From the NCBI GenBank assembly GCA_022750435.1, contig JAKIVS010000001.1:102542-166541 (forward strand): 64,000 nucleotides of DNA. Reading direction: 5' to 3'. Below, one piece after another: positions 277 to 16,894 of the stretch (position 1 is the stretch's first letter; each line of letters begins with the position of its first letter). The position numbers and the translations under genes are program-made. Below the pieces are notes generated by a model. The model was not told the DNA's origin and did not search any database. It saw only the letters and a program-made list of their open reading frames with translations. Source of the DNA: Thermoplasmata archaeon. Its GTDB lineage: Archaea > Thermoplasmatota > Thermoplasmata > Lutacidiplasmatales > UBA184.

Positions 277-1109
277 GGACGATGCTCGCCCTGGAACTCT
301 CGAAGAGTCGCACCGCCGAGATTGTCGGCCTCTCCCGACGGGCGCTCTACCGAGGACCCCGGACGTCTTCCGTTCGACGAACGCAAGCCGACGAACCCCG
401 GATCCGGGCCGCGGTCCGACGGGTCGCCTTCGCGCGTCCCTCCTTCGGTGTGCGACGGGTGTGGGCGATGCTCCGTCGTGAGGGACTCCGAGTCAACTGC
501 AAGCGGGTCCATCGACTGATGGCCGTCGAGGGACTGCTGCGACCGGCCCACTTCCCTCGGCCTCGCCTCCCTCCGACGGGGCGACTGAGCGCGGAGCGAC
601 CGGACGAGCGGTGGTACACCGATCTCACGGAGGTGGAGACCACCGATTTCGGCCCCTGTCCGTTGATGGCAATTCTCGACGCCTGCACGCGCGAGGTGGT
701 CCACTGGGAGTTCTTCCCGACGTGCGGAGCCGCGGAAGCACTCTCGGTGGTCGAAGGCGCGGTGGCGAAGCGGTTTCCCCGACTCCTCCAGGCCCCCGGT
801 ACCGTCCTGGTGACGGACCAAGGGGCGCAGTTCATCGCGAAGCGCTTCCGCGAGGGGACGAGGCTGCTCGGCCTCGACCTCCGATGGACCCGGAAGAAGC
901 GCCCGGAGGACAACGGGCTCCAGGAATCCTTCCACGGACATCTGAAGCAGGACTACCTGTGGCTGAGGGAGCCGGAGAACTTCTACGCCACCCGCAAACG
1001 AATCGCGGAAGCGATCGACGACTACAACACCGAGCGACCGCACTCATCGCTTGGATATCTCACGCCGCGAGAGTTCGCGCAGAAGGTCCGCGAAGAGGTG
1101 TCAACATGA
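252..1109 (+). CDS. IS3-family transposase OrfB (rve/DDE integrase core), expressed as an OrfAB fusion by -1 frameshift
   Basis: Frame is -1 relative to orfA. Motifs WYTDLTEV, LVTDQGAQFIAK, NGLQESFHGHLKQ and the C-terminal YNTERPHSSLGYLTP signature of IS3/retroviral-type integrases. Confidence 0.85.
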   Translation, partial: KKRRREIVRTMLALELSKSRTAEIVGLSRRALYRGPRTSSVRRTQADEPRIRAAVRRVAFARPSFGVRRVWAMLRREGLRVNCKRVHRLMAVEGLLRPAHFPRPRLPPTGRLSAERPDERWYTDLTEVETTDFGPCPLMAILDACTREVVHWEFFPTCGAAEALSVVEGAVAKRFPRLLQAPGTVLVTDQGAQFIAKRFREGTRLLGLDLRWTRKKRPEDNGLQESFHGHLKQDYLWLREPENFYATRKRIAEAIDDYNTERPHSSLGYLTPREFAQKVREEVST

Positions 1110-1142: not shown

Positions 1143-2048
1143 GTGAGAAGATGTACGGGGTACACGTCAGTGTCCGCATGGGCCGAGTCGTGCGAGGGGG
1201 TGACTCCCTTGACTCGGCAGACGTATCGGGAACACGTCGGGGCGATGCCCGGCCATTTTGAACGGCTCGGGCTCGAGTACCCCGCGTCCGGAAACTTCGT
1301 GACGCGGGCGATGATCGAGACCTACGCCCACGACCAGAGTCTCGCGCCGACGACCCGCGCGATGAACCTGGGTCTGCTTCGCCAGTTCCTCGAGTGGAAG
1401 TCCGTTCCACTCGCGGACCAAAAGAAGGTCTGGAAAGGTCCGAAACGCGTCGCCACGCGTCGGTACTGGCTCACGAAGGAGCAGCTGACTGCGCTCCTGA
1501 ACGCCGCGGAAGGCCGGGAGCGGATCGCGCTCCTGCTGATGGGGACCAATGGGCTCCGCCAGTTGGAAGTGCGCCTGCTTCGCGTCCGCGACTGCCACAT
1601 GGAGGCGGATAGCCCGACTCTGGACGTGACCGGCAAGTTCGATAAGGTCCGGCAGATCGCGATGAACCGGCTCGTCTGGAGCGAAATGCTGCCCCTGGTC
1701 ACGGGGAAGAATGCGAACGACCGAGTCTACCCGTGGAAGCGAACGACGATTGCGCGGGACCTTTGGAACGCCTGCGACCGCGGGGGGCTCCCGCGCCGAA
1801 GTCCCCACGACCTGCGCCGGACGTTCGGACGGCTCGCGTACAAGGCCGGAGTGCCCCTGACCACGATCCAGGGGTTCTACGGCCACGAGAAGCTCGAGCA
1901 GACGGTCTACTACATCGGCATCGACCAGGCCGATGGGCGCGCCGGAATGGACCGTTTGGAGGGGTTCCTAAACCCTTCCCGGCCCGGAAACGCCGTTTCC
2001 GGGCCGGCGGCACCCCATTTTACTGACGTGCCGGCCAGGTCGCAGTAG
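1143..2048 (+). CDS. Tyrosine recombinase / phage-type integrase (copy 1)
   Basis: Catalytic C-terminal half: NGLRQLEV (Arg), SPHDLRRTFGRL (HxxR), GHEKLEQTVYYIG (His, Tyr). Clear paralog of the integrase at 3383-4438. Its N-terminus is about 60 aa shorter than the paralog, and the ORF begins 34 nt after the IS3 orfB stop. Confidence 0.85.
   Translation: MRRCTGYTSVSAWAESCEGVTPLTRQTYREHVGAMPGHFERLGLEYPASGNFVTRAMIETYAHDQSLAPTTRAMNLGLLRQFLEWKSVPLADQKKVWKGPKRVATRRYWLTKEQLTALLNAAEGRERIALLLMGTNGLRQLEVRLLRVRDCHMEADSPTLDVTGKFDKVRQIAMNRLVWSEMLPLVTGKNANDRVYPWKRTTIARDLWNACDRGGLPRRSPHDLRRTFGRLAYKAGVPLTTIQGFYGHEKLEQTVYYIGIDQADGRAGMDRLEGFLNPSRPGNAVSGPAAPHFTDVPARSQ
1981..2005. repeat. Perfect 12-bp inverted repeat with 1-nt spacer (GGCCCGGAAACG C CGTTTCCGGGCC)
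   Basis: Read directly. Lies in the last 25 codons of integrase copy 1. Function unknown: terminator hairpin or protein-binding site. Confidence 0.6.
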
Positions 2049-2455
2049 TAAGCCCCATTCTGGTTCAGGCAGCATTCGACTCCGCGCTCTCCTCGACGGT
2101 CGGGGGACCAACTTCCTCCCGTCTCTCAGGGCTTGCTCCCGGGGAGTCGGCCGTTTCACCAGATCCCGACGGAATCTCCGGCGCATCGCCTTCACCGTAC
2201 CGTCGGGCTGTGTCGTTGCTGCTCCGTTGCTCGGGCTCTCACCCGGCGGGCTCCCGCCCGCCCCCGTGGTCCCCGGAGTGGGGACTTTCCTCAGCGGGGT
2301 ACCGTTGCCGATAACCACCACCGTCAGCTGCCCTCTGCCTCCTGGCGAGTCGGGGGAACCACGGTCGGGGGTAAGGCTTCCGGCCCGGCGTCCGATATCT
2401 ACTCGCCCCGGTCTGCCCGAGTTGTGAAGAGCCTTCTTCCGGCGGGGCGAATCCA

Positions 2456-3145
2456 CTGAAGCTCGTCCCGGCCATTTCGATTTCGAAGGGGAAGGTCCTC
2501 GCGGAAGAGGATGGGGACATGGTCGCCGTCGCCGGGTCCGACGGCAAACCCCGCGACATCCTCGACATCACCGATGCCCTCGGCAAGGAGTTCGATGCGC
2601 TCTACGTGATCGACCTGGACGGGCGCCGCCGGGGGGAGCCCCAGCTCGACTACCTCCAGGAGATCGCCCGCGACCACGAAGTCTGGCTGGATGCCGGCGT
2701 GCAGTCGTCCGATGAGGCGATCGACGGACTCGTCACCGGGGCCAAGCACGTCATCGTCTCCACCGCGAGCATCCCCAACGCACGGGAACTCCGCCGGGCG
2801 TGGAAGCTCTCCGATGAGGTGGTCCCGGAGGTCGTGACTCACGCCGACGGGACCGTCCTCGCCTACGACGAGGGCTGGGGAGGGCGCCCGATCGCCGACG
2901 TCGCGAACGAGGTTCGCGAGATGGGTCCCCGCCTCCTCCTCTACTCGCCGAGAGAATCCCGACCGGACTGGGCCACCGTCCGCGCCCTGGCGATCGGCGG
3001 ACCGGTGTGGGTCGGAGGCGGGATCGACCCGGAGGAGAGGTCCGCCGCGGAATCGGCGGGTGCCGAGGGAATCATCCTCCGATTGACGGCGAGTCGGCTC
3101 GCCGGCTTCGCCGCCGCGCCGGCCCCCGCGAGCCCCCCGCCGTAG
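2456..3145 (+). CDS. HisA/HisF-family (beta/alpha)8-barrel protein; start codon non-canonical or eroded
   Basis: Translation from 2456 gives (L)KLVPAISISKGKVL...YVIDLDGRRRG...VWLDAGV...HVIVSTAS...VWVGGGI, the HisA/HisF strand pattern. First in-frame ATG/GTG/TTG is 2519, which would delete beta-strand 1. In-frame stop at 2372-2374. CTG at 2456 is the only plausible start. Confidence 0.6.
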   Translation: MKLVPAISISKGKVLAEEDGDMVAVAGSDGKPRDILDITDALGKEFDALYVIDLDGRRRGEPQLDYLQEIARDHEVWLDAGVQSSDEAIDGLVTGAKHVIVSTASIPNARELRRAWKLSDEVVPEVVTHADGTVLAYDEGWGGRPIADVANEVREMGPRLLLYSPRESRPDWATVRALAIGGPVWVGGGIDPEERSAAESAGAEGIILRLTASRLAGFAAAPAPASPPP

Positions 3146-3250
3146 CTCCTCATCCCCGGACGACTCGTACTGCCACCCTGAATCGAGCTTCGCCTCGCGC
3201 CGACCTGCGGCGGGCCGTCTCCGCCCTGCCCTATTCCCCCTCGCAGGGTC

Positions 3251-3269
3251 GACGAAACACCTTTTCTCC
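3251..3269 (+). promoter_or_regulatory. BRE/TATA-like promoter of the box C/D sRNA
   Basis: GACGAAACACCTTTTCTCC. The T-rich box is centred about 25 nt upstream of the sRNA 5' stem (3288). Near-identical box upstream of thrS (14932-14950). Confidence 0.5.
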
Positions 3270-3287
3270 TCGACGGAGCTCCGCCAC

Positions 3288-3352
3288 GGTGCGGGATGAT
3301 GACACCTAGAACCAGCTGAATCGTGATGAATGATGGGCGAGCTGACCGCACC
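3288..3352 (+). ncRNA. Archaeal box C/D sRNA (2'-O-methylation guide)
   Basis: Architecture, 5' to 3': 5' stem GGTGCGG (3288-3294); box C ATGATGA (3296-3302); 13-nt guide; box D' CTGA (3316-3319); 3-nt loop; box C' GTGATGA (3323-3329); 12-nt guide; box D CTGA (3342-3345); 3' stem CCGCACC (3346-3352), perfectly complementary to the 5' stem. Total 65 nt. Confidence 0.85.
3332..3352 (+). repeat. attL: 21-nt direct repeat GATGGGCGAGCTGACCGCACC (within the sRNA 3' half)
   Basis: Exact copy at 14805-14825. A 21-mer match by chance within 64 kb is very unlikely. Confidence 0.75.
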
Positions 3353-3382
3353 TCAGAGACTTGCCCTTCGCACATAAACCCC

Positions 3383-4438
3383 CTAGGCAGACACCTGCAC
3401 GGCCGGGAGAGTGCGAGGGCTGGGAGCGTCGAAGGTTCCGACGACTTCCCGCATCCCGTCGAGCGTCTCCCCGATGTAGTAGAGCGTCTGCTCGGTCGCG
3501 GCGTGGTTGTAGAGCGCCCGGATCGTGTTGACGTTCACCCCGCGGGCGTACAGGATCCGCCCGAACGACCGTCGTAGGTCGTGCGGCGACGCTGGGACCC
3601 CCAGGACCACCGCAAGCTCTGCCACGTCGCGATAGATGGTGCGGTAGCTGAGGGGATACACCCGGTCGGCCGGCCCACGACCCACCACGAACGGCCGGAG
3701 CGCGTTCGCCACGGCTTTGGAGATCGGATAGTACTTCCTCGCTCCACCCTTGCGGGTCACCGTCAACGCGGGCCGGTCCATCGAGAGGTCCACGTCCCGG
3801 GCGAGCAGGCTCCATAGCTCGCGCCGGCGGAGCCCCGCCCACGCCCCCAGGGCAAGTACGAGGCGGTGCCGCTCGCTCGGCGCGGCGTCCCACATCCGCT
3901 GGATCTGCTCCTCGGAAAACCAGCGCCGGTGCGTTGCGTCCCCCCGTCGGCCCCGCCAAATCGGGTCCAGCTTTGCCACTCCCGCGTGCGCCCATCCGAG
4001 GAAGCCTCTCAGGAAGAAGAGGGCCTGGAACGCCGAAGGCTGCACGATTTCGCGGGGCTTCCCGTCCCGGGTCCGACCCATCGGATGCTCCTTCCACGCG
4101 AGGACCATCTCCGCGGTGACGTCCTGAGCGTGCTCGGTCGCCTCGAGCCCGGCCGCCGTGAAGCGGCCGGGCCACGCCCGCAGGCAACGTTCGGCTCCTT
4201 CCGCGCTGCTCCTCGACCATACTCCTTCGACTCGCTTCGACTCCGCGTACCGCTTGGCCGATTCGATCCACCACCGTCCCCTTGCGGGCACGGTGTCCTC
4301 CGAGCCGTCCCGAGAGGCGTCGAGGTTGAAGGAGTCACGGTCCGTTCGATATCCGACCTCCGCATCGATCGCGAGGGACGGCGGCCGAGCGGCCTTGGTG
4401 GTTGAAACTGCTCCGGAGGTTGGACCTCCCTGCACCAT
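3383..4438 (-). CDS. Tyrosine recombinase / integrase (copy 2, element-encoded)
   Basis: AGLRRREL, SPHDLRRSFGRIL, NHAATEQTLYYIG catalytic motifs. The start is set at the internal ATG 4438 (MVQGGPTS...) because a TATA-like box (4472-4480) lies downstream of the track start at 4699. Confidence 0.85.
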   Translation of the reverse strand: MVQGGPTSGAVSTTKAARPPSLAIDAEVGYRTDRDSFNLDASRDGSEDTVPARGRWWIESAKRYAESKRVEGVWSRSSAEGAERCLRAWPGRFTAAGLEATEHAQDVTAEMVLAWKEHPMGRTRDGKPREIVQPSAFQALFFLRGFLGWAHAGVAKLDPIWRGRRGDATHRRWFSEEQIQRMWDAAPSERHRLVLALGAWAGLRRRELWSLLARDVDLSMDRPALTVTRKGGARKYYPISKAVANALRPFVVGRGPADRVYPLSYRTIYRDVAELAVVLGVPASPHDLRRSFGRILYARGVNVNTIRALYNHAATEQTLYYIGETLDGMREVVGTFDAPSPRTLPAVQVSA

Positions 4439-4725
4439 CTCGGCCGCCACCGCGGGTTGGGAGTGAATTCGGAGATAAGGAACCGAACCGGCCCTTGGAA
4501 CGTGAACGACGCCACCGTTCGCCGTCCGACGAGAATCGTGAGTTGAAAAGGCCCGGTTCAAGATGCCGACGCGATGTCGGATGCCGCCGTCCACCGCCTC
4601 GTCGCGATCCCCGGCCCGCGCTTGAATGCCGAGGGCAAAACCTCGCTCCGGCCGCCTTTGCTCCTCCCTCCGGGCCTCGAGTGGTGGCTGGAGCTCCACC
4701 GAGCGGCCGACGGTTCTGGTTGCGT

Positions 4726-6789
4726 ATGTCTCGGCGCGTGTTCACCTGGCGCCTGACGTCCGTCGCCACCGCACTCGGCGAGGCGATTCCCGGCGTCCAG
4801 CTGACGGCGACCACGACCTGCCCGCTTGGACCGAACTTCCGCTCGCAGGGAACGCTCCTCCGCGCGAAGGCGGCCGTGCCGACGCACTATTGGCCGATCC
4901 AGCTCCAGGGCGGTCTCGACCGCGCCGGGCCGCTGATCCATCTGCTCGGGTCCCCTCAACTGGACGGTGAGGAGGTTCTCCTGCAACTTCTGTTTCGGAG
5001 TCCGGGAGGCTGGGAGCGGGGCTGGTTCGGCGCATCCTACGAGAGCTTCCTGACGGGGGTTGACCAGCGCCAGCGACCGCAGTTCGACCGGCGAATGGCG
5101 GAGCCGCCGTTCCACGTTGAGATTCGCGCGGCGTTTCTCGGACCACACGACTGGCTGGCCGCCCGTGCGGTCGACCAATGGGCGGCCTCCTGGATGTCGA
5201 TGCACGGGTCCGCCCAGTGGCGGCTCGAGCCGGTTCGGGGCCGCCGGCGGCGGGAGCGGTTCTTTCAATCGATGCGGGACCATGACCTGACGCGATGCGT
5301 CGGGAAGAATGGCAGGCGGGACGTCTCGGCGTCGGAGGCGTCGGCCCTTCTTCCGATTCCTTGGCGGGAGAGACACCCGAACCTCACGTACGTCGGAGCG
5401 CCGACGGGCGTCCCTCCCACCGAGCTGGTCGCCGACGTGCGACGGCCCACCGACGTGATCGTCGGGTCCTCCGGGTCCGAACTCGTTCGCTTGCCCCCGA
5501 GTTGGCACCACCTCGCCATCGTCGGGCGGACTCGTTCGGGGAAGTCGACCCTCGCGCAGAACATCGCCCTCCAAATCCTCCGGTCTCAACCGGGGGCGAA
5601 GGTCGTCGTCCTAGAGCCGACGGGAGAGCTGATCCGCGACCTTGTGGACCGGCTCCCGGCCAGGGCGGCGGAGGACGCGATCGCGATCGACCCGGCGCAC
5701 CCCACCGAGGTTGAGAGCGGGCAGGACCTCTCCCGCGTTCCGCTGAATCTGCTTGGAATGGAGGGCCGTCCGAAGGTGGGAACTCCGGAGTTCGAGCGGC
5801 AGGCGGAGCAGGTCTCGGGGGGGCTGGTTCAGGCGATCAAGAACGCGTGGGGCGAGGAGAGCGTCGGTGGGCGCGCCGATTTCATCCTGCGGTCGATGTT
5901 CCAGGCGCTCCTCACGGTCGAAGGTACGAACCTCGTCGACGCCTACACCGCGCTCTCCGACAAGGAGACCCTCCGCCGGCTCGAGCGACTCGTCCCCGAG
6001 GGCCTACTCCGGCAAGCGCTGCGAACGCACCTTCCGCGGCTCGACTACGCGTTCACGATTTCGTCCCTGGACAAGGTCGGAAAGATCGCGACGAACCCGA
6101 TCCTCCGGAAGGCGCTCTGCCAGCGGTACCACCCGGTCTCGTTTGATCAGCTGCTCGACCACCAGCTGGTCCTTCTGGACCTCGCCAAGGGCTCCCTCGG
6201 GACCGAGGCCGCGAACTTCCTGGGGGCGGTCTACCTCACGCAGCTCTGGTCGGCGATCCAGCGGCGCGAGAGGAAGGACCTCCCGGTCTACCTCGTGGTG
6301 GACGAGTTCCACAACTACGCGATCCCTGCCTTCGCGGACATGCTGAGTGAGGGCGCCCGCCTGGGGCTCCAGGTCGTGGCGGTCACCCAGTACCTGAACC
6401 GCATCCCGCAACGGATCCGATCGGCTCTGGTCGGGAACGTCGACGCGTGGATGCTGTTCTCCCTTGGGACCGAGGACATGAACGAGGGGTGGAAGATCCT
6501 TCAAGGCGACCAGTTTGGCTGGACGCCCGACCACCTCGTGAGCGGGCTCGCACCCCACGAGGTCGCGCTGGCCGTGCGCGGGTCGTTGCTTCGGGTCGCG
6601 ACGTCGCCCCCTGCGCCCCCGAACGATGCCGTTGAGAAGACTCGGCGAGTTGTCCAGGTCAGCTCACGCCGGTACGCTCGACCGGAGGACTCCGAGGCCT
6701 CTCCGTTGGCGGTCGGTCGAGCGGATTGCCGCGTTCCTCCGAGTCTTTCCGGAGCTAGAAGGTCGGACCCACCGGCAGCTTACCGATGA
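4726..6789 (+). CDS. HerA/FtsK/VirD4-superfamily P-loop ATPase (DUF87/TraD-like) with an unrecognised N-terminal domain of about 330 aa
   Basis: Walker A HLAIVGRTRSGKST, Walker B VYLVVDEFHNY, downstream VAVTQYLNRIP...NVDAWMLFSLG. The start is set at ATG 4726 because the upstream part of the track ORF overlaps the integrase on the other strand. Confidence 0.75.
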   Translation: MSRRVFTWRLTSVATALGEAIPGVQLTATTTCPLGPNFRSQGTLLRAKAAVPTHYWPIQLQGGLDRAGPLIHLLGSPQLDGEEVLLQLLFRSPGGWERGWFGASYESFLTGVDQRQRPQFDRRMAEPPFHVEIRAAFLGPHDWLAARAVDQWAASWMSMHGSAQWRLEPVRGRRRRERFFQSMRDHDLTRCVGKNGRRDVSASEASALLPIPWRERHPNLTYVGAPTGVPPTELVADVRRPTDVIVGSSGSELVRLPPSWHHLAIVGRTRSGKSTLAQNIALQILRSQPGAKVVVLEPTGELIRDLVDRLPARAAEDAIAIDPAHPTEVESGQDLSRVPLNLLGMEGRPKVGTPEFERQAEQVSGGLVQAIKNAWGEESVGGRADFILRSMFQALLTVEGTNLVDAYTALSDKETLRRLERLVPEGLLRQALRTHLPRLDYAFTISSLDKVGKIATNPILRKALCQRYHPVSFDQLLDHQLVLLDLAKGSLGTEAANFLGAVYLTQLWSAIQRRERKDLPVYLVVDEFHNYAIPAFADMLSEGARLGLQVVAVTQYLNRIPQRIRSALVGNVDAWMLFSLGTEDMNEGWKILQGDQFGWTPDHLVSGLAPHEVALAVRGSLLRVATSPPAPPNDAVEKTRRVVQVSSRRYARPEDSEASPLAVGRADCRVPPSLSGARRSDPPAAYR

Positions 6790-6901
6790 ACTCCACTGGA
6801 CGAGATCCGAGGTTGAGGGGGTGCTGGCCAGATGCCGTGCCGCCGGCGACGTTGCCAACGTCGGCTCCGATGCGTGCGGATTGACCCTCCGGGGGTCGTA
6901 A
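6626..6901 (+). CDS. Possible small winged-helix DNA-binding protein (overlaps the ATPase 3' end in another frame)
   Basis: IAAFLRVFPELEGRTHRQLTDELHWTRSEVEGVLARCRAAGDVANVG looks like a wHTH. Could instead be the ATPase C-terminus joined by a frameshift. Confidence 0.35.
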   Translation: MPLRRLGELSRSAHAGTLDRRTPRPLRWRSVERIAAFLRVFPELEGRTHRQLTDELHWTRSEVEGVLARCRAAGDVANVGSDACGLTLRGS

Positions 6902-6970
6902 CATCGACAGGCGATAGAGGCCGCGAGGAACGAGGGGGAGGAGCATACCGAGCTCCTGACCGACGCGGCG

Positions 6971-7636
6971 ATGTTCCTCGAGGCGAAGGGGATCCGCATT
7001 CGAATCGTCAACCAAGGGGGCGGGTACCTCGTCCCGGACGCCGAGTTCGACCTCGGAGGCCAATCGTACAACGTCGAGGTCGAATGCTCGACGCTCGTAA
7101 AGCACGTCGATCAAGTAGCGCGCAATGTCCGAAAAGCCACCGTCGCTGGGCGGCGGTGTCTCGTCGTCGTTTCCGGGCAGGCGATGGCTGTCCGCTTCGC
7201 CAGCGTTTTCCATGACTGGAACGTTGGATCCCAGCTTTGGCGAGATGTCGGTCTCATCGCCAGAGACGCGAAGGGTGTTATCGTCCCGGTCGCGGAGGGG
7301 GCAACGCAGCCTTGGGGTTGGCTAATCGGCCGCCCGGACGAAATGCCCTCTCGAAGCTGCGCGCAAGGCCCGGAAATTATGCCGGAGAAGCCCGGATTCG
7401 CAAGCCTCTCCGACTTGGCGCGCGCACTCCGCCTCGCGAACCGGCTCGTGGCCGCCGGAAACCTTGAGGCCACCGCGCGGGATTTCCTCCGGATCGCCGA
7501 CCGAGACGATGCAGTGGCCGCCGACGCTCGCCGCCTGGGGATGGCGCTCAGGTCGCTCGGAGTCCGTCAGACAAGAGTTTGGCGAGACGGCAGACAGACC
7601 CGGATTTATGACCTGCACGCGATGTCGAAACCCTAG
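6971..7636 (+). CDS. Hypothetical protein, possible PD-(D/E)xK / Hjc-like nuclease fold
   Basis: N-terminal GGGYLVPDAEFDLGGQSYNVEVECSTLVK resembles the D...E-x-K core, but with Cys where Lys is expected. Rest is unrecognised. Confidence 0.45.
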   Translation: MFLEAKGIRIRIVNQGGGYLVPDAEFDLGGQSYNVEVECSTLVKHVDQVARNVRKATVAGRRCLVVVSGQAMAVRFASVFHDWNVGSQLWRDVGLIARDAKGVIVPVAEGATQPWGWLIGRPDEMPSRSCAQGPEIMPEKPGFASLSDLARALRLANRLVAAGNLEATARDFLRIADRDDAVAADARRLGMALRSLGVRQTRVWRDGRQTRIYDLHAMSKP

Positions 7637-7911
7637 AAGATTGATTGGGCCACCCGAATTTTCGATTCCCTTCCTGGGACAACTTCAGCCCCGAGGCGTC
7701 ACGGAATCTAACCGGGCCTTCGGATTGACCCGTGGGGCGTCGCTTAGCCTCAGCCTTCGACGGTGAGTCAAAGCTCCATCTTCACGGAAGGTGGAAGCGA
7801 CCGGGGCTTGAAATAGCATGGTGCACTCTATCGTGCCGCAGGGGGAGCTATTTTTGTCCTCGCGTGCCGGGTTCGCGCCGACTATCAATCGGGGCCCTCT
7901 TTGGGAACTCT

Positions 7912-10900
7912 GTGAGGCAATCGACGGTTCGAGACGACTTTGGCGGCCTGCTCACTGTTAGCCCAAGATTGGGCCAAGGACCGCGGACTGCGGTCCTCGG
8001 AGGGCTGGTCATCGTCTTCCTACTGCTGACTTCTGGCTCGAACCCGACGTTTACGGTTCCAAACTCTTCGAGCGCACCTGGCACGGCCCTTGGCCCGGCC
8101 CCGGGGCCTGCCCACCTGGCGGCTCTCAACGACGGCGCCAGACTTCTCGCCGAGGCGGCGACCTCCCTTGCGGATGGAGCCAGTCCTGAAAGCGGCACCG
8201 GAGCACGCTGCGTCCCTAGCGGAGCCGTAGAGAGCTGCGCTCAGCCCGGCGATAACGACCCGTCGGCCCCCCCAGCCGCTCCCCCCGCTCCAAACTTTCC
8301 CCATACTCTGAGTCCCCCAGCGCGATACGGAGCCGCGATGTCGTTGTTCTTGAACGGAACCGACACGGGCGACTCAGCTTTCCAAGTGGTTCTATTCGGA
8401 GGGGCAAACTCATCGGGATACGTATTCAACGATACCTGGCAGTTCAACACGTCAACCGCGACTTGGTGGAACGTGACCCCGACGTTGCACTGCTCGGTTT
8501 CGACGTGCCCCGGACCGCGGCATGACGCCAAGGCTACGTGGGACTTTCGGGACAACTACTCGATCATGTTCGGAGGCTGCAGCGTTGCGTCGCCGCAGTG
8601 GGTCGAAGCGGTCCCCGGGTGTGGAACGGGTTCAGGTGATTTCCTGTCCGACACTTGGAGTTACTCCGATCCCGCAGGAGGATACGGTCATTGGACAAAG
8701 TTGCATCCGACCACCTCTCCAAGCGGCAGATTTGCCGAGGGTCTGGCTGATAACTACAGTACCTCGACGACGCCAACCCCAAATGCCACCGTCTACATGT
8801 TTGGCGGTTGCGGCGCGTCGGGCCCCCTGAATGACACCTGGGAGTTCATTGCGGGAAATTGGACAAATCTCGGGCTAACATTTCACCCGGCTGCTCGGTT
8901 TGGCATGGCCATGGCGTATGGGGCGGGCAACAGCTCCACCGTCCCTCCGCCTGTCCCGACGGGGGCCGGCTTGATCGCCCTTTTCGGAGGGTGTGAGGTG
9001 GCGTCCACCGGATGCGGCGGCGCAGGGGCGTCGGGCGCGGTCAACGATACCTGGCTCCTCTACAAGGGAGCGTGGCATCTCGCGATATTGGGTTCCTCCT
9101 GCAACACCGTGGTCGTCTGTCCGTCGCCTCGCTACCTGATGGGGGGGACACCGTTCAATCCTCCCTCCGGCACGTTGCATTCCTGGGGGCTGTTGATGTA
9201 CGGCGGGGCCGGGCCAGGCGGCATAATCCTGGGCAATGCATCAGAAGTCAAGGGCGGAGACTGGTTCTTCAGCGCGTCAAGTAATCCGGCAAGTTGGGCG
9301 CAAGTGACTTCGCTTCCGAATTACTTGAGCACCGCCCCGAACACCACTTCCTCGGGTTGGTACGGACCGGCCCCGGTCGGGCCGCCTGTTCCTCGCTACG
9401 ATCCCAACTTCGTCGGCAACCTGATGGACGGGGCCACCCTGTTCGGCGGTTCAAGCGCGTCTGGATCCTCGTTGGGGGACACTTGGGCCACCGCGGACTT
9501 CGGTTCGATCTTGTACAGCGGTTTGTTCTGGCCACCCCCTGCCCCCTCGGCCCAGTACGGCGGGACGATGGTGTACGACGCTCTCAACGGGTATGACGTT
9601 CTCTTTGGCGGTTGCGGAAACCACTGCGCAAATGCGTCGATCTGGAGCTTTACCGCCCACCAGTGGATGCCTTGGTCCGAGGTTACCCCTGCGGCGTCCT
9701 CGGCCGCGCGGTTTCCTGCTGGCCGGCTCAACGCGAGCATGATTTACTTCAACCAGGCAGGAACGGGACACGCCCGGCAGCAATCCGTGGTTTTGTTTGG
9801 GGGCCTCGCCTCGAACGGGACACTCTTGGGCGACACGTGGAACTACTCGAATGGAAAATGGACGAATCTCACTTCGACAATCGGCTTTTCACCCTCACCC
9901 CGAGAGAGCGCCGCGTTCGCTTACAATGGATCTGGGACTGTGGACTATGCGGTCCTGTTCGGGGGCCGAAACAGTACAGCCATCCTCGCAGACACCTGGC
10001 TATTGACGTGGTCCGGAGCGACCCAATCTTGGAGTTGGGCGCTCCAGACAACGCCGAGCGAACCGTCGGGTCTCCTTGCTGGCCGATACGGGGCTGTCAT
10101 GACCTACGATGCGAGAGATGGCGAGGTGGTCCTCTTCGGCGGGTGTGGGAGCACATGTCCACTGGGGGACACCTGGAGCTACGTGGGTGGAACTACCTGG
10201 TCCGAGTGCAGTTCGACCAGTTGTACGACTCACGGCCCTTCCGCGAGATGGGGCGCAGCGATGACGTTCGATGTTTACGATAATTTTGTCGTCATGTATG
10301 GTGGATGCGGCGTCACGTGTCCGCTCGGAGATACCTGGAAATTCTACGCAGATACCTGGACCCAACTCACGCCGACGACTTCACCTCCGGCCCGTTACAA
10401 CGCCGCGTTTTCGTACGACCTCGCAGGGGACTTCGCTTTCTTGGTCGGTGGGATTGGAACGCAGGGGAAAGTTCTCGGCGAGATGGGATGGGCCTTTCAG
10501 GTAAATGACTGGACGGTCGGGACGCTGACCAACCAGTTCCCACGGACGCCGGTCCCGTCGCCCAGATTTGGAGCCAGTTTGGCCTACAACACGACTGGGG
10601 GCTACGTACTCCTGTTCGGCGGTTGCCAGTTCACCTCATTCGGAGGATGCGGGCCCTTGGCGAACCAGGCAGACACGTGGGAGTACTCCAACGGTATGTG
10701 GACGGAGCTCTGCTCTAACTGTGGCCCGTCAGCCCGCTGGGACGCGTCCCTCGTCTTTGTCCTACCGACAAGCTCTGAAGGATACTTCCTACTAGTCGGT
10801 GGGTGTCCGGCCGTTTCATCCACCTGCTCTCCCGCTCATGTCCTCGACGACGTTTGGAAATTCTCAGGCACTTCCTGGGTCCTCCTGACCAGTACTCCTG

Positions 10901-11607
10901 GATTCGGCGCTCGAGCGGATGCCAGTATGGCGTTCGATCCCTCGGTCGGAGCCGGCGGCGGGGAGGTCGTCATCTTTGGGGGGATTGGAAATCCGCCACC
11001 GGGCGGTACCGGCGTCTGGGACAATTGCTACAGATTGTCCCTCGGCACCGGCACGTGGAGCAGCGTGACCGTCGCCTCCGGACTTTCGGGCAGGTTTGGC
11101 GCGGCCAGCACGTTCGACACAGCCACCCATGACATACTGCTTTTTGGAGGAGAGGCTTCTGGAGGCTCGGTCGACTCGGACACGTGGACGTTTACGACTG
11201 GCGGGGTTTGGACACAAGTCCACCCAACCTCGTCACCGCCACCTCTGTTCGACGAGTCGATGGCCTACGACGCCTTCGACGGGTACGTCCTCTTGTTCGG
11301 CGGTGCCTCAACAGGCGGTTTGCTGAAGCTGGCCAATTGGACATTTTCTGGTTCCGTCACGTGGACACAGATTCACCCAGCCGCCAGTCCAGGGGCGAGG
11401 TGGGGTGCTGAAATGATGTTCGATCCCGATGCAGGCCCGAATGGGTTCACCGTCCTGTTCGGTGGTTCCGCCGAACGCAACGGCTGGGTAAGCGGCACCG
11501 CAACGGAGGCGGCCGCGGGCCCGGGCCTCGGAGATACGTGGCAATATCTTGGGGAGCCCATCCCTACTGGGACTCCTGACTGGACGGAACTCAGCCTATA
11601 TGGCTAG
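7912..11607 (+). CDS. Large Kelch-repeat (beta-propeller) surface protein with N-terminal signal anchor
   Basis: More than 20 repeats of the pattern FGG...(L/N)(N/G)DTW.(F/Y)....W...... N-terminal TM TAVLGGLVIVFLLLTSG. Many N-x-S/T sequons. Start proposed at GTG 7912, downstream of a TATA-like box near 7845-7858 (track start is 7732). Confidence 0.8.
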   Translation: MRQSTVRDDFGGLLTVSPRLGQGPRTAVLGGLVIVFLLLTSGSNPTFTVPNSSSAPGTALGPAPGPAHLAALNDGARLLAEAATSLADGASPESGTGARCVPSGAVESCAQPGDNDPSAPPAAPPAPNFPHTLSPPARYGAAMSLFLNGTDTGDSAFQVVLFGGANSSGYVFNDTWQFNTSTATWWNVTPTLHCSVSTCPGPRHDAKATWDFRDNYSIMFGGCSVASPQWVEAVPGCGTGSGDFLSDTWSYSDPAGGYGHWTKLHPTTSPSGRFAEGLADNYSTSTTPTPNATVYMFGGCGASGPLNDTWEFIAGNWTNLGLTFHPAARFGMAMAYGAGNSSTVPPPVPTGAGLIALFGGCEVASTGCGGAGASGAVNDTWLLYKGAWHLAILGSSCNTVVVCPSPRYLMGGTPFNPPSGTLHSWGLLMYGGAGPGGIILGNASEVKGGDWFFSASSNPASWAQVTSLPNYLSTAPNTTSSGWYGPAPVGPPVPRYDPNFVGNLMDGATLFGGSSASGSSLGDTWATADFGSILYSGLFWPPPAPSAQYGGTMVYDALNGYDVLFGGCGNHCANASIWSFTAHQWMPWSEVTPAASSAARFPAGRLNASMIYFNQAGTGHARQQSVVLFGGLASNGTLLGDTWNYSNGKWTNLTSTIGFSPSPRESAAFAYNGSGTVDYAVLFGGRNSTAILADTWLLTWSGATQSWSWALQTTPSEPSGLLAGRYGAVMTYDARDGEVVLFGGCGSTCPLGDTWSYVGGTTWSECSSTSCTTHGPSARWGAAMTFDVYDNFVVMYGGCGVTCPLGDTWKFYADTWTQLTPTTSPPARYNAAFSYDLAGDFAFLVGGIGTQGKVLGEMGWAFQVNDWTVGTLTNQFPRTPVPSPRFGASLAYNTTGGYVLLFGGCQFTSFGGCGPLANQADTWEYSNGMWTELCSNCGPSARWDASLVFVLPTSSEGYFLLVGGCPAVSSTCSPAHVLDDVWKFSGTSWVLLTSTPGFGARADASMAFDPSVGAGGGEVVIFGGIGNPPPGGTGVWDNCYRLSLGTGTWSSVTVASGLSGRFGAASTFDTATHDILLFGGEASGGSVDSDTWTFTTGGVWTQVHPTSSPPPLFDESMAYDAFDGYVLLFGGASTGGLLKLANWTFSGSVTWTQIHPAASPGARWGAEMMFDPDAGPNGFTVLFGGSAERNGWVSGTATEAAAGPGLGDTWQYLGEPIPTGTPDWTELSLYG

Positions 11608-11853
11608 CCAAGCCTTCCCCTATAGGTGCGGGCCCCGGTTGTGCGAGGGGAGGCGCCCCTCCGGAACGGCACGGAGCATCAGGTTGAGGTGTCCTTGACT
11701 TCAGACGCGGGAGTCAGTCCGGAGGCGGCGCACATCTTCCCTCGAGGAACTGGGAGGGGCCCCTCGACCTTTCGGGCGGGGGGCAGGCGTCGAACTGAGA
11801 AACAGGATCGCAAGATTGCTTGTAATTCTTGGGTGGAGCAGCACGATAGGCCC

Positions 11854-14178
11854 ATGGTATCGAGGTCGCGATTCGGCCACCTCGTCGTCCTTTTCGCGTG
11901 CGTGGCGTCACTGGCATGCTCGGGGGGGGTTGGTATCGGCAGTTGGGGAAATGTTGTACGAGACGGCTCTCTAGGTGCTCCGGGTTACCTCAGTCTCCTC
12001 GCCGCGGGGTTAGGAAGTCCGGGGAGCGGAGTCCCGCCACACCTCGCCGAGCCCGCCGCAGTCGCTCGCTCGCAATCGGAAGGGTGGACGTTGTGGACTA
12101 ACTCGACCGACCCGCCGGCGAGGGAGAATTCCCGCCTCGTCGACTACCCCCCGGGCGATGGCGTACTGCTTTTCGGGGGCGTCGACGCGTGGAACAATCC
12201 CACGAACGACACTTGGCTCTTCCACGGCGGGACGTGGACGGAACTCTGCAGCGGAAACTCAACTGCGCCGACGTGTGCCTTATCGCCACCTGAGCTGGGG
12301 GACCCAGCGATGGCATACGACGCCGCGTCCGCGCAGGTGGTCCTCTTCGGGGGGAACGAGGCGAACTACACTTGGATCTTTCAGAATGGCACCTGGACGA
12401 ATCTGACGACCCCCGAGACACCGCCCGGTGGGACGGACCTCACTATGGCGTACGATGCGGCAATTCGCGCCGTGGTACTTGTGCCCTTGGACGGAACGAC
12501 CTGGACCTTCGCCAACAACTCGTGGACCCAGCAGCACCCCCTGAACTCACTGGGGAGCAGGCATTCCCGGGCATTCTTTTTCAATCAGCAGGATGGAGGA
12601 ATGATTTTCTGGGGGGGCATCGCGGGCGGACCCGTAACCAACGAGACTTGGGAGTATCGGGCCGACAACTGGACACAGCTCGCGCCCCCAACCTCCCCGC
12701 CCGCCGGACAAGCATTGGGATCTGCCGAGGACACCGAATTCAACTTCGGCGTCGTTCTCGGCATCGTCAGTGGTACGGGCGCGACAGCAGACAACACGAC
12801 CTGGACATTTGCAAACGGTACCTGGTCAAATGTGACGGCAACTTTTGGCACGCCACTTCCGGCGTCGGCCGGCTATCCTGGCCTGGGTTACGACTCTACC
12901 GATGGCTACGTTATTGAGTTCGGTGGAAACTGCGCCTGCTCCGCCTCGGCCGGCCAAACTTGGATACTCCGCGACCCATTGATTCTAAACGTGACGGCCT
13001 CGGCACGGGTTCGGGACTTGAGCCAGACCGTCAACTACTCGATTGCGATTCTGGGCGGCATCATGCCCTACTCGGTATCGTATCCAACAATGCCACCGGG
13101 TTGCCTTCAACCCACGAACTACTCCGTTGCCTTCACCCTCTCTTGCTCCTTGAACGAGACGGGTGCGTACTCCTTCACCGTCCACCTATCGGATGCCTAC
13201 GGATCCAAACTTACCCTCGTCTTCCCGCTCCAGGTCAATGCAGACCCGACGGTGAAGCTCGCCGCCTCACCGAACCCCACAACCGCGGGGATTCCGGTTC
13301 ACCTCGGGGCGACCATTGGTGGCGGCACCGCTCCCTCTCTCGGAAATTGGTCGATCGCCGACGGCCCGTCCGGAACCGCCCTCGACCTCAATGTGACGTT
13401 TGCCGCCCCAGGTTCCTACCCCGCAACGTATGGTGGGGTCGACGGTGCCGGGTATCCCTTTAACGCGACCGTTGAGGTCGAAGTCAACCCTGCGATCGGC
13501 CTGTCGGCAACCCTCTCCTCGAACGTCACCGACGTCGGTTTCCCGATCCTGCTGAGCGCCACCGCGTCCGGCGGAACTCCCCGCCTCGCCTACTCTTGGG
13601 CGTTCGGAGACGGGGAAACGGCCTCTACCAATATCTCGGTCCACTCGTACGGAGCCCCGGGCCGCTACTCTCCCCGCGTTTGGGCGAACGACTCCGTAGG
13701 TGGGGTCCGCACGACGACACTCCAAATCCAAGTGAATCCGGATCTCACGGCGAATGCGACCGTCAACGCGTCGAAGCCGATTCAAAACGGAAGTGTCGCC
13801 TTCCGGACCGTGGTTGCGGGCGGCACCGGTCCCGATACCTACTGGTGGAGCTTCGGAGACGGCACCTCGAGCCACTCGGCCGACCCGACCCACTCCTACT
13901 CCGTGACGGGGCCTCGGACGGCGACACTCCGTGTCAACGATTCCGTCGGAGGAAATCAGACCGTCCAGATCCCCCTCGACGTCGTCGCTCCCGCGACCGT
14001 CAACACATCCGTCCCTCCGCCCCCGTCCGGTAGTTCCGGCATTTCGACGGCCGACCTGGTCGTGTCCCTGGTAGGGGTCGGAGTAATCGGCATTGCCGTG
14101 GGCGTCTTGTTCGGCCGCGTCCGCCGGCCTCCGCCCCCGACCGAGGAAGATCCGGCCGCTCCGGTACGTGACCCCTGA
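11854..14178 (+). CDS. Kelch-repeat plus PKD/Ig-like-domain surface protein with C-terminal TM anchor
   Basis: Signal peptide MVSRSRFGHLVVLFACVASLACSGG. Kelch repeats (LLFGG...NDTWLF). PKD signatures (YSWAFGDGETAS...HSYGAPGRY, YWWSFGDGTSSH...HSYSVTGPR). C-terminal TM followed by an RVRRPPPP tail. Confidence 0.8.
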   Translation: MVSRSRFGHLVVLFACVASLACSGGVGIGSWGNVVRDGSLGAPGYLSLLAAGLGSPGSGVPPHLAEPAAVARSQSEGWTLWTNSTDPPARENSRLVDYPPGDGVLLFGGVDAWNNPTNDTWLFHGGTWTELCSGNSTAPTCALSPPELGDPAMAYDAASAQVVLFGGNEANYTWIFQNGTWTNLTTPETPPGGTDLTMAYDAAIRAVVLVPLDGTTWTFANNSWTQQHPLNSLGSRHSRAFFFNQQDGGMIFWGGIAGGPVTNETWEYRADNWTQLAPPTSPPAGQALGSAEDTEFNFGVVLGIVSGTGATADNTTWTFANGTWSNVTATFGTPLPASAGYPGLGYDSTDGYVIEFGGNCACSASAGQTWILRDPLILNVTASARVRDLSQTVNYSIAILGGIMPYSVSYPTMPPGCLQPTNYSVAFTLSCSLNETGAYSFTVHLSDAYGSKLTLVFPLQVNADPTVKLAASPNPTTAGIPVHLGATIGGGTAPSLGNWSIADGPSGTALDLNVTFAAPGSYPATYGGVDGAGYPFNATVEVEVNPAIGLSATLSSNVTDVGFPILLSATASGGTPRLAYSWAFGDGETASTNISVHSYGAPGRYSPRVWANDSVGGVRTTTLQIQVNPDLTANATVNASKPIQNGSVAFRTVVAGGTGPDTYWWSFGDGTSSHSADPTHSYSVTGPRTATLRVNDSVGGNQTVQIPLDVVAPATVNTSVPPPPSGSSGISTADLVVSLVGVGVIGIAVGVLFGRVRRPPPPTEEDPAAPVRDP

Positions 14179-14804
14179 AGAGCTGGCCCGAAGGCGGCCA
14201 GGTCGGGGTCGCGAACCACGGCGAGAACGGCAGGGTTCCGTGCCGACTGTCGAGCGTGTGCCGACCTATGAGAAAGGCCCAGGGGTCCTCGGCACATTAG
14301 AATCGACGCGTCGGTCGGCACGCTTCGTTTCGCGCTTCGGAGGGGGTTGGCACGCTCACGCAGTTGGCCGCTCGGTAGTCCGGGGGCTGCACGTGGGTCG
14401 GACCATTACGGGTCCCATCGGCTCCGCATTCGTAGGACTGGCATACGATGACACGACCGATCAGATGTTCGTGACCGAGGTAAACAACGGCAAGGTCTAC
14501 GTGTTCAACTGAGTCAGTCGCTCGGAGAGGCGCGAGTCGGACGCTGCAAATGCTTGCAGTGACCCAATCGCTGAGGAAGAACTCATTTTGGGTCCATTTC
14601 TTCGTCCAAGAGATCTAGTGGGCTTCTGCCTGTAGACGCGTCCTCGCGGGGAACCGGGGGTCCGAGGACCCCCGGGAAGAGGTTGGCTCCTACTCGGTGG
14701 AGGACCGAGCCGGAGCGATACGGAGTCGGGGGGCGAGGTCGTCGAAAGAGCGCTTGGTCGGGGAGGGGGTCCGAAAAGGGCACGTCTCTGAAGTGATGAC
14801 AAAG

Positions 14805-14825
14805 GATGGGCGAGCTGACCGCACC
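14805..14825 (+). repeat. attR: second copy of the 21-nt direct repeat
   Basis: Identical to 3332-3352. Preceded by degenerate CTGA-A-GTGATGA, but has no box C and no GGTGCGG 5' stem, so it is a displaced 3' sRNA fragment rather than a gene. Confidence 0.75.
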
Positions 14826-14931
14826 CCAATCGGCTTCCGACCTGCCCTCCGTGGGCCCGAACGCTGTGAGGGTCCCACGTGAGAATTCGCACCGGCCCCC
14901 GGACGGCCCAGGGGGTTGACCCCCGCGAACT

Positions 14932-14950
14932 CGACGAAACCTTTTCCTCC
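14932..14950 (+). promoter_or_regulatory. BRE/TATA-like promoter of thrS
   Basis: CGACGAAACCTTTTCCTCC, about 35 nt upstream of ATG 14981. Confidence 0.5.
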
Positions 14951-14980: not shown

Positions 14981-16894
14981 ATGCCGGAGTCCGTCTCGGT
15001 CACCCTCCCCGACGGCTCCATTCGCTCCGTTCCGACAGGGACCGAGATTGGCAAGATCCTTCTTGCCTGGAATCCGGAAGGATTCCGGCGCTATGTCGCC
15101 GCGACTTGGAACGGGGTCGGCGTGGACCTTTCCCGTCCGGTCACGGCGGATGGCGTGGCCGCCCCGCTGACGTTCCAGGACCGCGCCGGTCGGGACATTC
15201 TTCAGCACTCGGCAGCTCATCTGGTTGCCAAGGCGCTCACCGAAGTGGTCCCCGGCGCGCTCCCCACGGCGGGCCCCCCGACCGAGGAGGGATTCTACTA
15301 CGACTTCGACGTCCGACCGCTGACTCCCGCGGACCTCGACGGGGTCCACGCCGCGATGGCGCGCGACGTCGCCAGCAACCTACCGTTCGACCGGTTGGAG
15401 GTCGACCGTCCCGAAGCCGTCGAGCTCGCCGGAGGCAACCGCCACAAGCAGCGGTACATCGAGGAGATCCCACCGGGGGAGACGGTCTCGTTCTACCGGA
15501 CGGGGAGCTTCCTCGACCTCTGTGCGGGGCCGCACGTCCCGTCGACGAAGTGGCTGGCGGGCGCGCACATCCTCGGCTTCTCGGCCATCACGGCCGGCGG
15601 AGAGAAGGATGGCGAGCCGCGCCAACGGATTCGCGGGATCGGGTTCCCCACGAAACCCGAACTCGAGGCCTACCTGAAACTGAGGGCCGCGGCCGAAGCG
15701 CGCGACCACCGCGTCCTTGGCCAGAAGCTCGAGTTGTTCTCGTTCTCGGACGAGGCGCCCGGATTCCCGTTCTGGCACCCGAACGGGATGGTCGTGATCC
15801 GCGAGCTCGAACGGTTCGTCACCGACCATTTCCTCGAGGACGGGTACCACGAGATCCGAACGCCGCTGCTGTTCGCGAAATCGGTGTTCGAGACGAGCGG
15901 CCACTGGGAACACTACCGTCAGAACATGTTCATCACGCTCGCCGACGACCGGGAGTTCGGCTGGAAGCCGATGAACTGCCCGGGATCCATGATGATCTTC
16001 CAGTCCCGGGCGAGGAGCTACCGGGAACTTCCACTCCGGTTGGCCGAGTTCGCTCCCCTCCACCGGCTCGAACCGAGCGGGACGCTCCACGGCATGACGA
16101 GGGTCCGGGAGTTCGTCCAGGACGACGCCCACCTGTTCGTCACGGAGGAGCAGATCGAGGAGGAGCTCGTCCGGCTCCTGAAATGGATCGACCGCGCGTA
16201 CACGACGTTCCGGTTCACCTGGAGCTACGAGCTGTCAAAGCGCCCCAGCCAGTTCCTCGGCGACGCGGCGGAATGGGACCGGGCGGAAACCGTCCTCGAA
16301 AAGGTCCTCAAGGCGTCGGGAATCGAGTACCGAGTCTCTGCGGGTGAGGGGGCGTTCTATGCACCGAAGATCGACATCCACATCCGGGACAGTCTCGGCC
16401 GTCCGTGGCAGACCGGAACGATCCAGCTCGATTACCAGATGCCCGCGCGCTTCGGCCTGGAGTACCAGGGCGCCGATGGTCATCTCCACCGACCGGTCGT
16501 CATTCACCGGACTATTCTCGGAAGCTGGGAGCGGTTCTTCGGCGTGCTTCTGGAACACTGCGACGGCCGTCTCCCACCGTGGCTCAGCCCGGTGCAGGTC
16601 CGGATCCTCCCGCTGGCCGACCGGCACGAGCCGGCTGCGGACCAACTCGCCGTACGACTCCGGAAATCGCATCTCCGCGTCGAACGCGCGGGGAGTGACG
16701 AGACGCTCTCCAAGAGGGTCCGTCAGGCGGAGATTGACCGGATCCCGTACCTGATCGTGCTCGGTGACCAGGAGGTCGCCAACGGAACGATTGCCCTCCG
16801 AATCCGGGGCGAGAAGGGCCAGAAGCTTCTCTCGGAACCGGACGCGATCGCCCGGATGTCGACCGCGGTCGAGCAGCGGGCGTTCGACCCTTAG
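14981..16894 (+). CDS. thrS: Threonine--tRNA ligase (bacterial-type, with TGS and N2 editing domains)
   Basis: TGS-like N-terminus (VTLPDGSIRSVPTGT), editing motifs HSAAH and CAGPH, class II core (MNCPGSMMIF, FVQDDAHLF, GAFYAPKID), anticodon-binding C-terminus. Start at the internal ATG 14981. Confidence 0.93.
   Translation: MPESVSVTLPDGSIRSVPTGTEIGKILLAWNPEGFRRYVAATWNGVGVDLSRPVTADGVAAPLTFQDRAGRDILQHSAAHLVAKALTEVVPGALPTAGPPTEEGFYYDFDVRPLTPADLDGVHAAMARDVASNLPFDRLEVDRPEAVELAGGNRHKQRYIEEIPPGETVSFYRTGSFLDLCAGPHVPSTKWLAGAHILGFSAITAGGEKDGEPRQRIRGIGFPTKPELEAYLKLRAAAEARDHRVLGQKLELFSFSDEAPGFPFWHPNGMVVIRELERFVTDHFLEDGYHEIRTPLLFAKSVFETSGHWEHYRQNMFITLADDREFGWKPMNCPGSMMIFQSRARSYRELPLRLAEFAPLHRLEPSGTLHGMTRVREFVQDDAHLFVTEEQIEEELVRLLKWIDRAYTTFRFTWSYELSKRPSQFLGDAAEWDRAETVLEKVLKASGIEYRVSAGEGAFYAPKIDIHIRDSLGRPWQTGTIQLDYQMPARFGLEYQGADGHLHRPVVIHRTILGSWERFFGVLLEHCDGRLPPWLSPVQVRILPLADRHEPAADQLAVRLRKSHLRVERAGSDETLSKRVRQAEIDRIPYLIVLGDQEVANGTIALRIRGEKGQKLLSEPDAIARMSTAVEQRAFDP

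Follow-up and report, generated by a model that had tools for sequence, protein, structure and literature searches.

As a textbook rule, the islands of archaea and bacteria integrate site-specifically at the 3' end of tRNA genes, and bacterial islands and prophages also integrate in stable RNA genes other than tRNA genes, such as tmRNA (ssrA). Here we describe a stretch of 64,000 nucleotides (nt) from contig JAKIVS010000001.1 (assembly GCA_022750435.1, positions 102,542 to 166,541), referred to below as the window, which very probably contains a site-specific element integrated in the 3' end of a conserved box C/D small RNA (sRNA) gene of an uncultured soil Thermoplasmata archaeon. In archaea, the chromosomal attachment sites (attB) given in a 2021 review of tyrosine recombinases are tRNA genes, intergenic regions and protein-coding genes, with no mention of sRNA, snoRNA or non-coding RNA in this role (PMC8371274). 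The C/D sRNA genes of Pyrobaculum undergo duplication and rearrangement and form copies resembling miniature inverted-repeat transposable elements, but the study that describes them reports no integrase attachment site (10.1101/121921). A full-text literature search found no published integrase attB in a C/D sRNA gene; its coverage was incomplete, and the result is absence of evidence only. What appears to be new here is a C/D sRNA gene that serves as a landing site in the way that tRNA genes do, while the mechanism itself is conventional.

Islands that target ssrA share with this locus a structured small-RNA gene that provides attB and a 3' end that is duplicated and restored by the element; they differ in the domain of life, the class of RNA (here a 2'-O-methylation guide) and the lineage of the integrase. 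The closest described systems are the tRNA-targeting elements with intact integrases (type II, pNOB8-type; PMC8371274). Like these, the element has a tyrosine recombinase gene beside the attachment (att) site, direct repeats at its ends and an integrase that is not split. Its own attachment site (attP) likewise duplicates the 3' portion of a gene for a small stable RNA, so that one junction carries the rebuilt gene, and one site is used repeatedly, giving rise to islands and tandem arrays. Among the defining features of that group, only the target gene differs. An earlier note, made from the sequence alone, had likened the layout to that of pNOB8-type elements, a label that is apt in that the integrase gene stays intact, with the core of the att site 31 nt past its stop codon, but less so for the integrase itself, which is Xer-like by sequence. 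SSV-type (type I) integrases are also tyrosine recombinases of archaeal mobile elements and target tRNA genes. However, as described in PMC7253208, their integrase gene contains attP and is split when the element integrates, whereas here the core lies outside the reading frame and the gene is whole. Among solved structures, the best match to the integrase is the archaeal dimer resolvase XerA (Pyrococcus abyssi, 4A8E, E = 8e-13; see also 5HXY), with which it shares the R-K-H-R-H-Y set and a length of about 300 amino acids. XerA is a core gene product acting at chromosomal dif; the integrase described here, in contrast, is element-borne, patchily distributed over about 40 clusters and encoded beside an sRNA-derived core.

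The element is bounded by a perfect 21-nt direct repeat, GATGGGCGAGCTGACCGCACC, on the plus strand at 3332-3352 (attL core) and 14805-14825 (attR core). This repeat had been noticed earlier, and exact and mismatch searches confirmed that there are exactly two copies in the 64-kb window, with no further copy even when up to three mismatches are allowed. No copy of the 21-mer appeared in any of 100 dinucleotide-preserving shuffles, in line with a chance expectation of none, and searches of the window and of the loci of relatives showed that it is not dispersed at unrelated positions. Allowing mismatches, the similarity covers 32 nt at 88% identity (3324-3355 and 14797-14828). The repeats are separated by 11,452 bp, or 11,473 bp when one core copy is counted. 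ARAGORN found no tRNA gene anywhere in the window, so that no tRNA gene provides attB here. To the left lies a HisA/His_biosynth-like gene (2519-3145, plus strand; Pfam His_biosynth), which is found 5' of the sRNA in all relatives. To the right is thrS, encoding threonyl-tRNA synthetase (ThrS; 14981-16894, plus strand; Pfam tRNA-synt_2b, HGTP_anticodon and tRNA_SAD), whose ATG at 14981 is 155 nt past the right repeat. Both genes belong to the host flanks. The relatives used for comparison are soil Thermoplasmata metagenome-assembled genomes, including 'Candidatus Lutacidiplasma', whose ThrS is 60-85% identical to that of the window; the loci compared carry L numbers below.

The left repeat copy is the 3' part of an intact 65-nt box C/D sRNA gene that can be read directly from the sequence (3288-3352, plus strand). 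In order, it consists of the 5' stem GGTGCGG (3288-3294), box C ATGATGA (3296-3302), a 13-nt D' guide, box D' CTGA (3316-3319), box C' TGATGA (3324-3329), the 12-nt D guide ATGATGGGCGAG (3330-3341), box D CTGA (3342-3345) and the 3' stem CCGCACC (3346-3352), which pairs with the 5' stem. The attL core thus comprises the 3' part of the D guide, box D and the 3' stem, as had been proposed for the left copy. Archaeal C/D sRNAs are recognised by a box C of RUGAUGA, a box D of CUGA, internal C' and D' boxes, a short terminal stem that closes the C/D kink-turn, guides of about 12 nt and a total length of about 50-70 nt; the guides pair with an rRNA or tRNA in such a way that the modified base falls 5 nt upstream of box D or D'. 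The gene in the window agrees in its boxes, guide lengths, size and terminal stem. At the gathering threshold, Rfam did not match the sRNA in its default scan of the window, the sole match being archaeal RNase P RNA (2037-2343, minus strand). A scan of 3200-3450 by E-value, however, gave full-length matches to more than 15 archaeal C/D families, the best of them just under their gathering scores (sR2, 40.3 bits against 42, E = 9e-8; snoPyro_CD, 37.8 against 45).

Comparison with relatives adds to the case for the gene. Orthologues were found in 22 further related Thermoplasmata loci, and in the alignment of all 23 sequences boxes C and D are invariant and the D guide nearly so. Boxes C' and D' are kept in most sequences and degenerate in a few (e.g., L016 and L019), and the core of the D' guide is AGAACC. 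The terminal stem covaries, with GCGG/CCGC, GCGC/GCGC and GCAG/CTGC alternating among orthologues: the four inner pairs are formed in 23/23 sequences, with compensatory changes at two of them (in 9 and 2 sequences). Alignment pairs 14-71 and 15-70 are always paired, 24 cells change on both sides compared with 10.2 in shuffles, and the observed covariation score was reached by 0/500 shuffles. With canonical boxes, full-length covariance-model matches close to threshold, 23 orthologues and a covarying stem, the sRNA is, on sequence grounds, a real conserved gene. The near-invariance of its D guide fits a constrained target. Complementarity predicts CUCGCCCAUCAU as the target of the D guide and CUGGUUCUAGGUG as that of the D' guide, with the modified base at position 5; neither the window nor the related loci covered contain an rRNA or tRNA gene to compare with the guides. 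The D guide could perhaps pair with the A-loop region of 23S rRNA, a possibility that is not used as evidence here.

The sRNA had also been credited with a promoter of its own, a claim that comparison with orthologues did not uphold. Promoter-like motifs lie 5' of both the sRNA and thrS (3253-3268 and 14937-14950). The one before the sRNA, CGAAAC-ACCTTTTC about 20-35 nt upstream, occurs in the window only, and many orthologues closely follow the upstream gene; a conserved sRNA promoter was therefore rejected. About 30 nt 5' of the thrS start the motif is CGAAAC(A)CCTTTTC, and in relatives (L001-L052) its counterpart is (G/A)AACCTTTT or CCTTTTAG. In these GC-rich Thermoplasmata, this motif is likely a promoter element of the BRE (transcription factor B recognition element)/TATA kind, and the leader would then be very short.

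Next to the left repeat is an intact tyrosine integrase gene (3383-4291, minus strand; 302 amino acids as called), which reads toward attL. Its stop codon (3383-3385) stands 31 nt from the repeat, the distance given in the earlier note. Exact look-ups of the integrase and of ThrS (from the start at 14981) found neither protein on record. The product scores 56.7 bits against Pfam Phage_integrase (PF00589; cutoff 27.1) and also matches PHROG integrase families. Homologues, nearly all from soil metagenomes, fall into 42 clusters; 38 lie at 41-100% identity, and the others are more weakly similar. The full-length frame aligns with them from end to end, and the catalytic residues R155, K181, H237, R240, H263 and Y272 are invariant in an alignment of 16 integrase sequences. 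In a collection of viral contigs no relative of the integrase exceeded 35% identity, and a degenerate pattern of the core with the adjoining element arm (P') also found no match; nothing in these comparisons suggests a viral origin for the element.

Homologous integrase genes elsewhere show the same junction with the sRNA. Independent loci with DNA past the integrase stop codon number 12, the window counted, with integrases of about 55-83% identity. The att core adjoins the 3' end of the integrase gene in 12/12. In nine of these an intact sRNA following the HisA-like gene is present (the window, L085/86, L087, L089, L090, L091, L093, L094 and L098), which answers the earlier question of whether related integrases sit beside the same sRNA in other genomes. 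A His_biosynth gene was called beside the integrase in P0002, L085, L086 and L087, and the gene calls of P0002 place it after the integrase, in the same order as in the window. The remaining 3/12 (L081/82, L083/84 and L088) have an attP-like junction, in which the core carries an element-type arm on its far side. These may be tandem junctions, and where such a junction stands beside host genes, as at L081, tandem insertion is a possible explanation. At L081 (10700-13300) and in L082, a tRNA-Ser(GCU) gene comes after the junction, together with a gene for an AAA_15/AAA_21/DUF3696 ATPase of the kind found in defence islands; the L081 integrase is truncated to 232 amino acids.

If the interval between the repeats is an insertion, relatives should be found without it, and this was the case. 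The order of RNase P RNA, HisA-like gene and sRNA is kept in about 20 related loci. Five of these (L017, L018, L022, L025 and L040) have the empty site that the earlier note had asked for, with a single core and thrS directly following the sRNA at a distance of 78-212 nt. In 15 other loci the interval from sRNA to thrS measures 0.95-9.7 kb and holds unrelated DNA. Even in the closest relative, L021 (ThrS 85% identical), the 8.2-kb interval shares nothing with the 11.5 kb of the window, either as DNA or when translated; the intervals of L021 and L004 contain unknown reading frames and NHL/YNCE beta-propeller proteins. Contents so unrelated and so variable in size indicate that the sRNA-thrS interval is not syntenic core genome, which had been named as a possible objection. 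The window thus combines end repeats, an integrase at one end and a site that is unoccupied in relatives (at 60-65% ThrS identity).

Filled intervals also carry traces of earlier events. In other elements the core is followed by the P' motif TCAG(A/G)G..TTGCCC, and the same motif follows the sRNA, with no integrase, in 8/15 filled intervals (L003, L008, L014, L020, L021, L024, L028 and L030). L028 retains a 50-codon remnant of an integrase gene and L020 a fragment of an ATPase gene. Judged from these remains, the scarred loci are decayed insertions at the same site. The host side of attR in the window has a similar feature at 14838-14853, CGACCTGCCCTCCG, which resembles the P' arm motif of other elements (..TTGCCCTCCG) and may be the scar of an earlier insertion or a product of chance. 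With one sRNA gene used repeatedly by the family, the sRNA-thrS interval is, as far as these genomes can be compared, an insertion hot spot.

The anatomy of the att sites can be read from the layout. Since the sRNA is on the plus strand and the element is to its right, attL has the form B-core-P' and attR the form P-core-B', so that the sequence to the left of the attR core is the element's own. The P arm (14644-14804, plus strand) is non-coding and conserved. It contains a palindrome, one half of an inverted repeat and an sRNA-like CTGA-ag-TGATGA stretch. About 170 bp of it can be aligned with L004, L007, L081 and L088, and the arm is 87% identical to L004 7689-7869 and 71% identical to L007. 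Across this otherwise diverging stretch the palindrome TCGGTGGAGGACCGA (14684-14698 in the window) is kept in all four loci; the integrase, an accessory protein or an excision factor may bind there. A coding function for the arm was considered and rejected, as its conservation crosses frames, the only long frames run through attR and no single frame is conserved. Joining the two junctions gives ...GTGATGAATGATGGGCGAGCTGACCGCACCCCAATCGGCTTCC... for attB and ...GTGATGACAAAGGATGGGCGAGCTGACCGCACCTCAGAGACTTGCCC... for attP. In the reconstructed attP, the core and 13 nt of sRNA-like sequence are bracketed by a 16-nt inverted repeat with one mismatch (GGGCA..TCTCTGA / TCAGAGA..TGCCC). Its P' half, TCAGAGACTTGCCCTT, occupies 3353-3368, between the core and the integrase stop codon, and its P half, AAGGGCACGTCTCTGA, occupies 14776-14791. 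L081 has an equivalent repeat of 18 nt, also with one mismatch, made up of different bases, which means that the two halves have changed together; the repeat is weaker in L007 and L088. The inverted repeat and the 170-bp arm are presumably binding sites for the integrase or accessory proteins.

These arms bear on what the right repeat copy is. The stretch identical to the sRNA is 21 nt long in the window and about 23 nt long in both L081 and L084; in L004 and L007 it takes in box C' as well and reaches at least 28 nt. It follows that the C'/D'-like boxes at attR belong to an attP resembling the sRNA. The earlier note was correct in seeing there a second core with degenerate C'/D' boxes, but had taken them for a displaced fragment of the host gene, whereas they lie in the P arm conserved in L004, L007, L081 and L088. 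Alternatively, the right copy could be a partial duplication or pseudogene of the sRNA, produced by local duplication or homologous recombination, with the integrase nearby by coincidence. Partial and composite C/D sRNA copies are indeed known from Pyrobaculum (10.1101/121921), and the C'/D'-like boxes of the attR copy could be taken in the same sense. Such an origin is nonetheless extremely unlikely: the arm 5' of the right copy elsewhere directly adjoins homologous integrase genes as part of a P-core-P' junction, 12 independent integrase loci have the core at the same position, and the reconstructed attP is bridged by an inverted repeat. L004 and L007 have arms of the attR type, and L081/82, L083/84 and L088 have P-core-P' junctions.

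A further question is whether the integrase recognises the sRNA gene or simply the intergenic region 5' of thrS, in which case the overlap with the sRNA would be incidental. As the sRNA has been seen solely at one locus, after the HisA-like gene, the comparative data cannot separate locus from gene. The details of the core nevertheless make an incidental overlap very improbable. The block of identity starts within the D guide, and its end coincides exactly with the final base of the 3' stem; the core corresponds to the 3' part of the sRNA in every element and reaches further into it in several. Downstream of the sRNA, B' varies between genomes while the core is kept, and the core keeps its place beside the integrase in loci where thrS lies several kb off or is missing from the contig.

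Integration into the sRNA gene would then proceed as follows. The intact Xer-like integrase would recombine attP with attB, the latter being the last 21 nt or more of the C/D sRNA gene between the HisA-like gene and thrS, with strand exchange expected at a position within the 21 nt. With attP carrying a copy of the D guide, box D and 3' stem, the reaction would rebuild a complete sRNA at attL and leave a second core at attR, before thrS. The intact sRNA observed at attL, with attP supplying these parts, fits the earlier proposal that the insertion rebuilds an intact guide.

Between the integrase gene and the right arm, the element carries a large ATPase gene and cargo. The ATPase gene (4402-7636, plus strand, divergent from the integrase, with homology from about 4714) encodes a P-loop protein of the FtsK/HerA/TraG(VirD4) kind. 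Its Pfam matches are weak (DUF87/HerA, FtsK_SpoIIIE, TraG-D_C and TrwB), as are those to PHROG, and a sequence search of the PDB gave no match. Homologues are single frames, mostly of 1000-1130 amino acids, in at least 145 Thermoplasmata clusters, and one of them is annotated in its source as a type IV secretion conjugative DNA transfer protein. The gene adjoins the integrase in L083, L085, L090 and L091. In the window it is disrupted. The uninterrupted 1086-amino-acid orthologue of L083 aligns in two frames (4714-6729 and 6758-7624), which places a frameshift near 6730-6757, and an in-frame stop codon follows at 6899-6901, inside conserved sequence. The two disruptions could reflect pseudogenisation; the frameshift could also be an assembly error or, if the assembly was made from long reads, a sequencing error. 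The cargo consists of a 1291-amino-acid Kelch-repeat beta-propeller protein (7732-11607, plus strand; Pfam Kelch families, E = 1e-60) and an 850-amino-acid Kelch/PKD protein (11626-14178, plus strand; Pfam PKD_4, PKD and Kelch). With its C-terminal hydrophobic anchor and many N-x-S/T sequons, the latter is a probable surface glycoprotein. The guanine-plus-cytosine content of the cargo is 0.60-0.63, compared with 0.66-0.69 in the flanks. Other members of the family differ in what they carry: the L083 element also has a Kelch/PKD gene, L087 a restriction-modification system, a resolvase and a MazE-like gene, and L088 a DNA methylase and many small genes. We read the element as an integrated, plasmid-like member of a family defined by an integrase and a TraG/HerA-like ATPase, with variable cargo.

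Several observations weigh against the view that this is a mobile element. The window is the only locus in which both ends of one element are visible; in L085, L087, L091 and L094 no second core (attR) was found within the up to 10 kb of DNA covered. The empty sites all come from relatives with 60-65% ThrS identity and none from the same species. The four closest relatives besides L021 (L001, L002, L004 and, in part, L003) have a different neighbour upstream of thrS, which shows that the locus has been rearranged in several lineages. Finally, the broken ATPase gene raises the possibility that the element is a fixed relic. The disruption of this gene makes it probable that the element is not autonomous and suggests that this copy cannot transfer or replicate alone, although excision may still be possible.

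The relic view deserves particular attention because it is compatible with site-specific integration in the sRNA gene: the interval would be an old, fixed island that arose in this way and is now decaying, unable to excise or transfer. The frameshift and in-frame stop in a gene whose homologues are uninterrupted point in this direction, as do the decayed copies, both scars and gene remnants, that are common at the locus in relatives, and the empty sites all come from other species. Against it, the 21-nt repeats are still perfect, the integrase frame is full length with every catalytic residue, and the inverted repeat of attP is nearly perfect. In addition, the closest relative, L021, lacks the insert and has unrelated DNA in its interval, so that the insertion is recent on the scale of these genomes. 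Fixation and continued mobility come out about equally likely, with the relic perhaps a little under an even chance, and the element may still be active.

The use of a guide RNA gene as attB has consequences for annotation and for the host. Island finders confined to tRNA and tmRNA genes will miss elements of this kind, and 'pseudo-sRNA' halves such as the one at attR could be mistaken for sRNA genes in annotation. Integration at the sRNA accounts for the hypervariable island that separates the sRNA from thrS in poorly known, uncultured Thermoplasmata of acidic soils. The integrase and its att site, with a target of 21-30 bp that is conserved across the clade, could become a genetic tool for this lineage, for which none exists. 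The element also supplies part of the D guide, which raises the testable possibility of methylation guides being rewritten by mobile elements. In place of AUGAUGGGCGAG, a variant D guide, (G/C)UAAUGGGCGGG, is found in the sRNAs of L085/86, L091, L093, L094, L098 and L024 and in the attR-type copy of L007. It occurs only at occupied or scarred sites, and all five empty sites have GGGCGAG. This distribution could reflect host phylogeny or overwriting of the guide by the element.

A second tyrosine recombinase gene lies in the left part of the window (1143-2048, plus strand), with 33-35% identity to the element integrase. Its end meets or overlaps the 3' terminus of the gene for RNase P RNA, 1.3 kb from the sRNA. 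The same arrangement is seen at L003 (4847-5960) and L096 (500-1500), and the recombinase gene is absent in most relatives. In L021, sequence homologous to the window starts at about 1966, within the final codons of this gene. No repeat of the 3' end of RNase P RNA was found in the window or in L003. A second family of integrative elements may target the RNase P RNA gene, in which case its far end would lie outside the window. More tentatively, a clade of Xer-like integrases in soil Thermoplasmata might have diversified onto stable-RNA genes other than tRNA genes, with one branch at the 3' end of the C/D sRNA and a paralogous branch (the second gene of the window, L003 and L096) at the 3' end or trailer of RNase P RNA, and with attP possibly overwriting the D guide; we regard this broader scenario as rather unlikely. 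If the overwriting were real, such elements could alter the methylation of host rRNA. Immediately to the left of the second integrase gene is the frame of an IS3-family transposase (87-1106, plus strand; Pfam rve, rve_3 and HTH_21), which indicates that the region to the left of the RNase P RNA gene is also mobile DNA.

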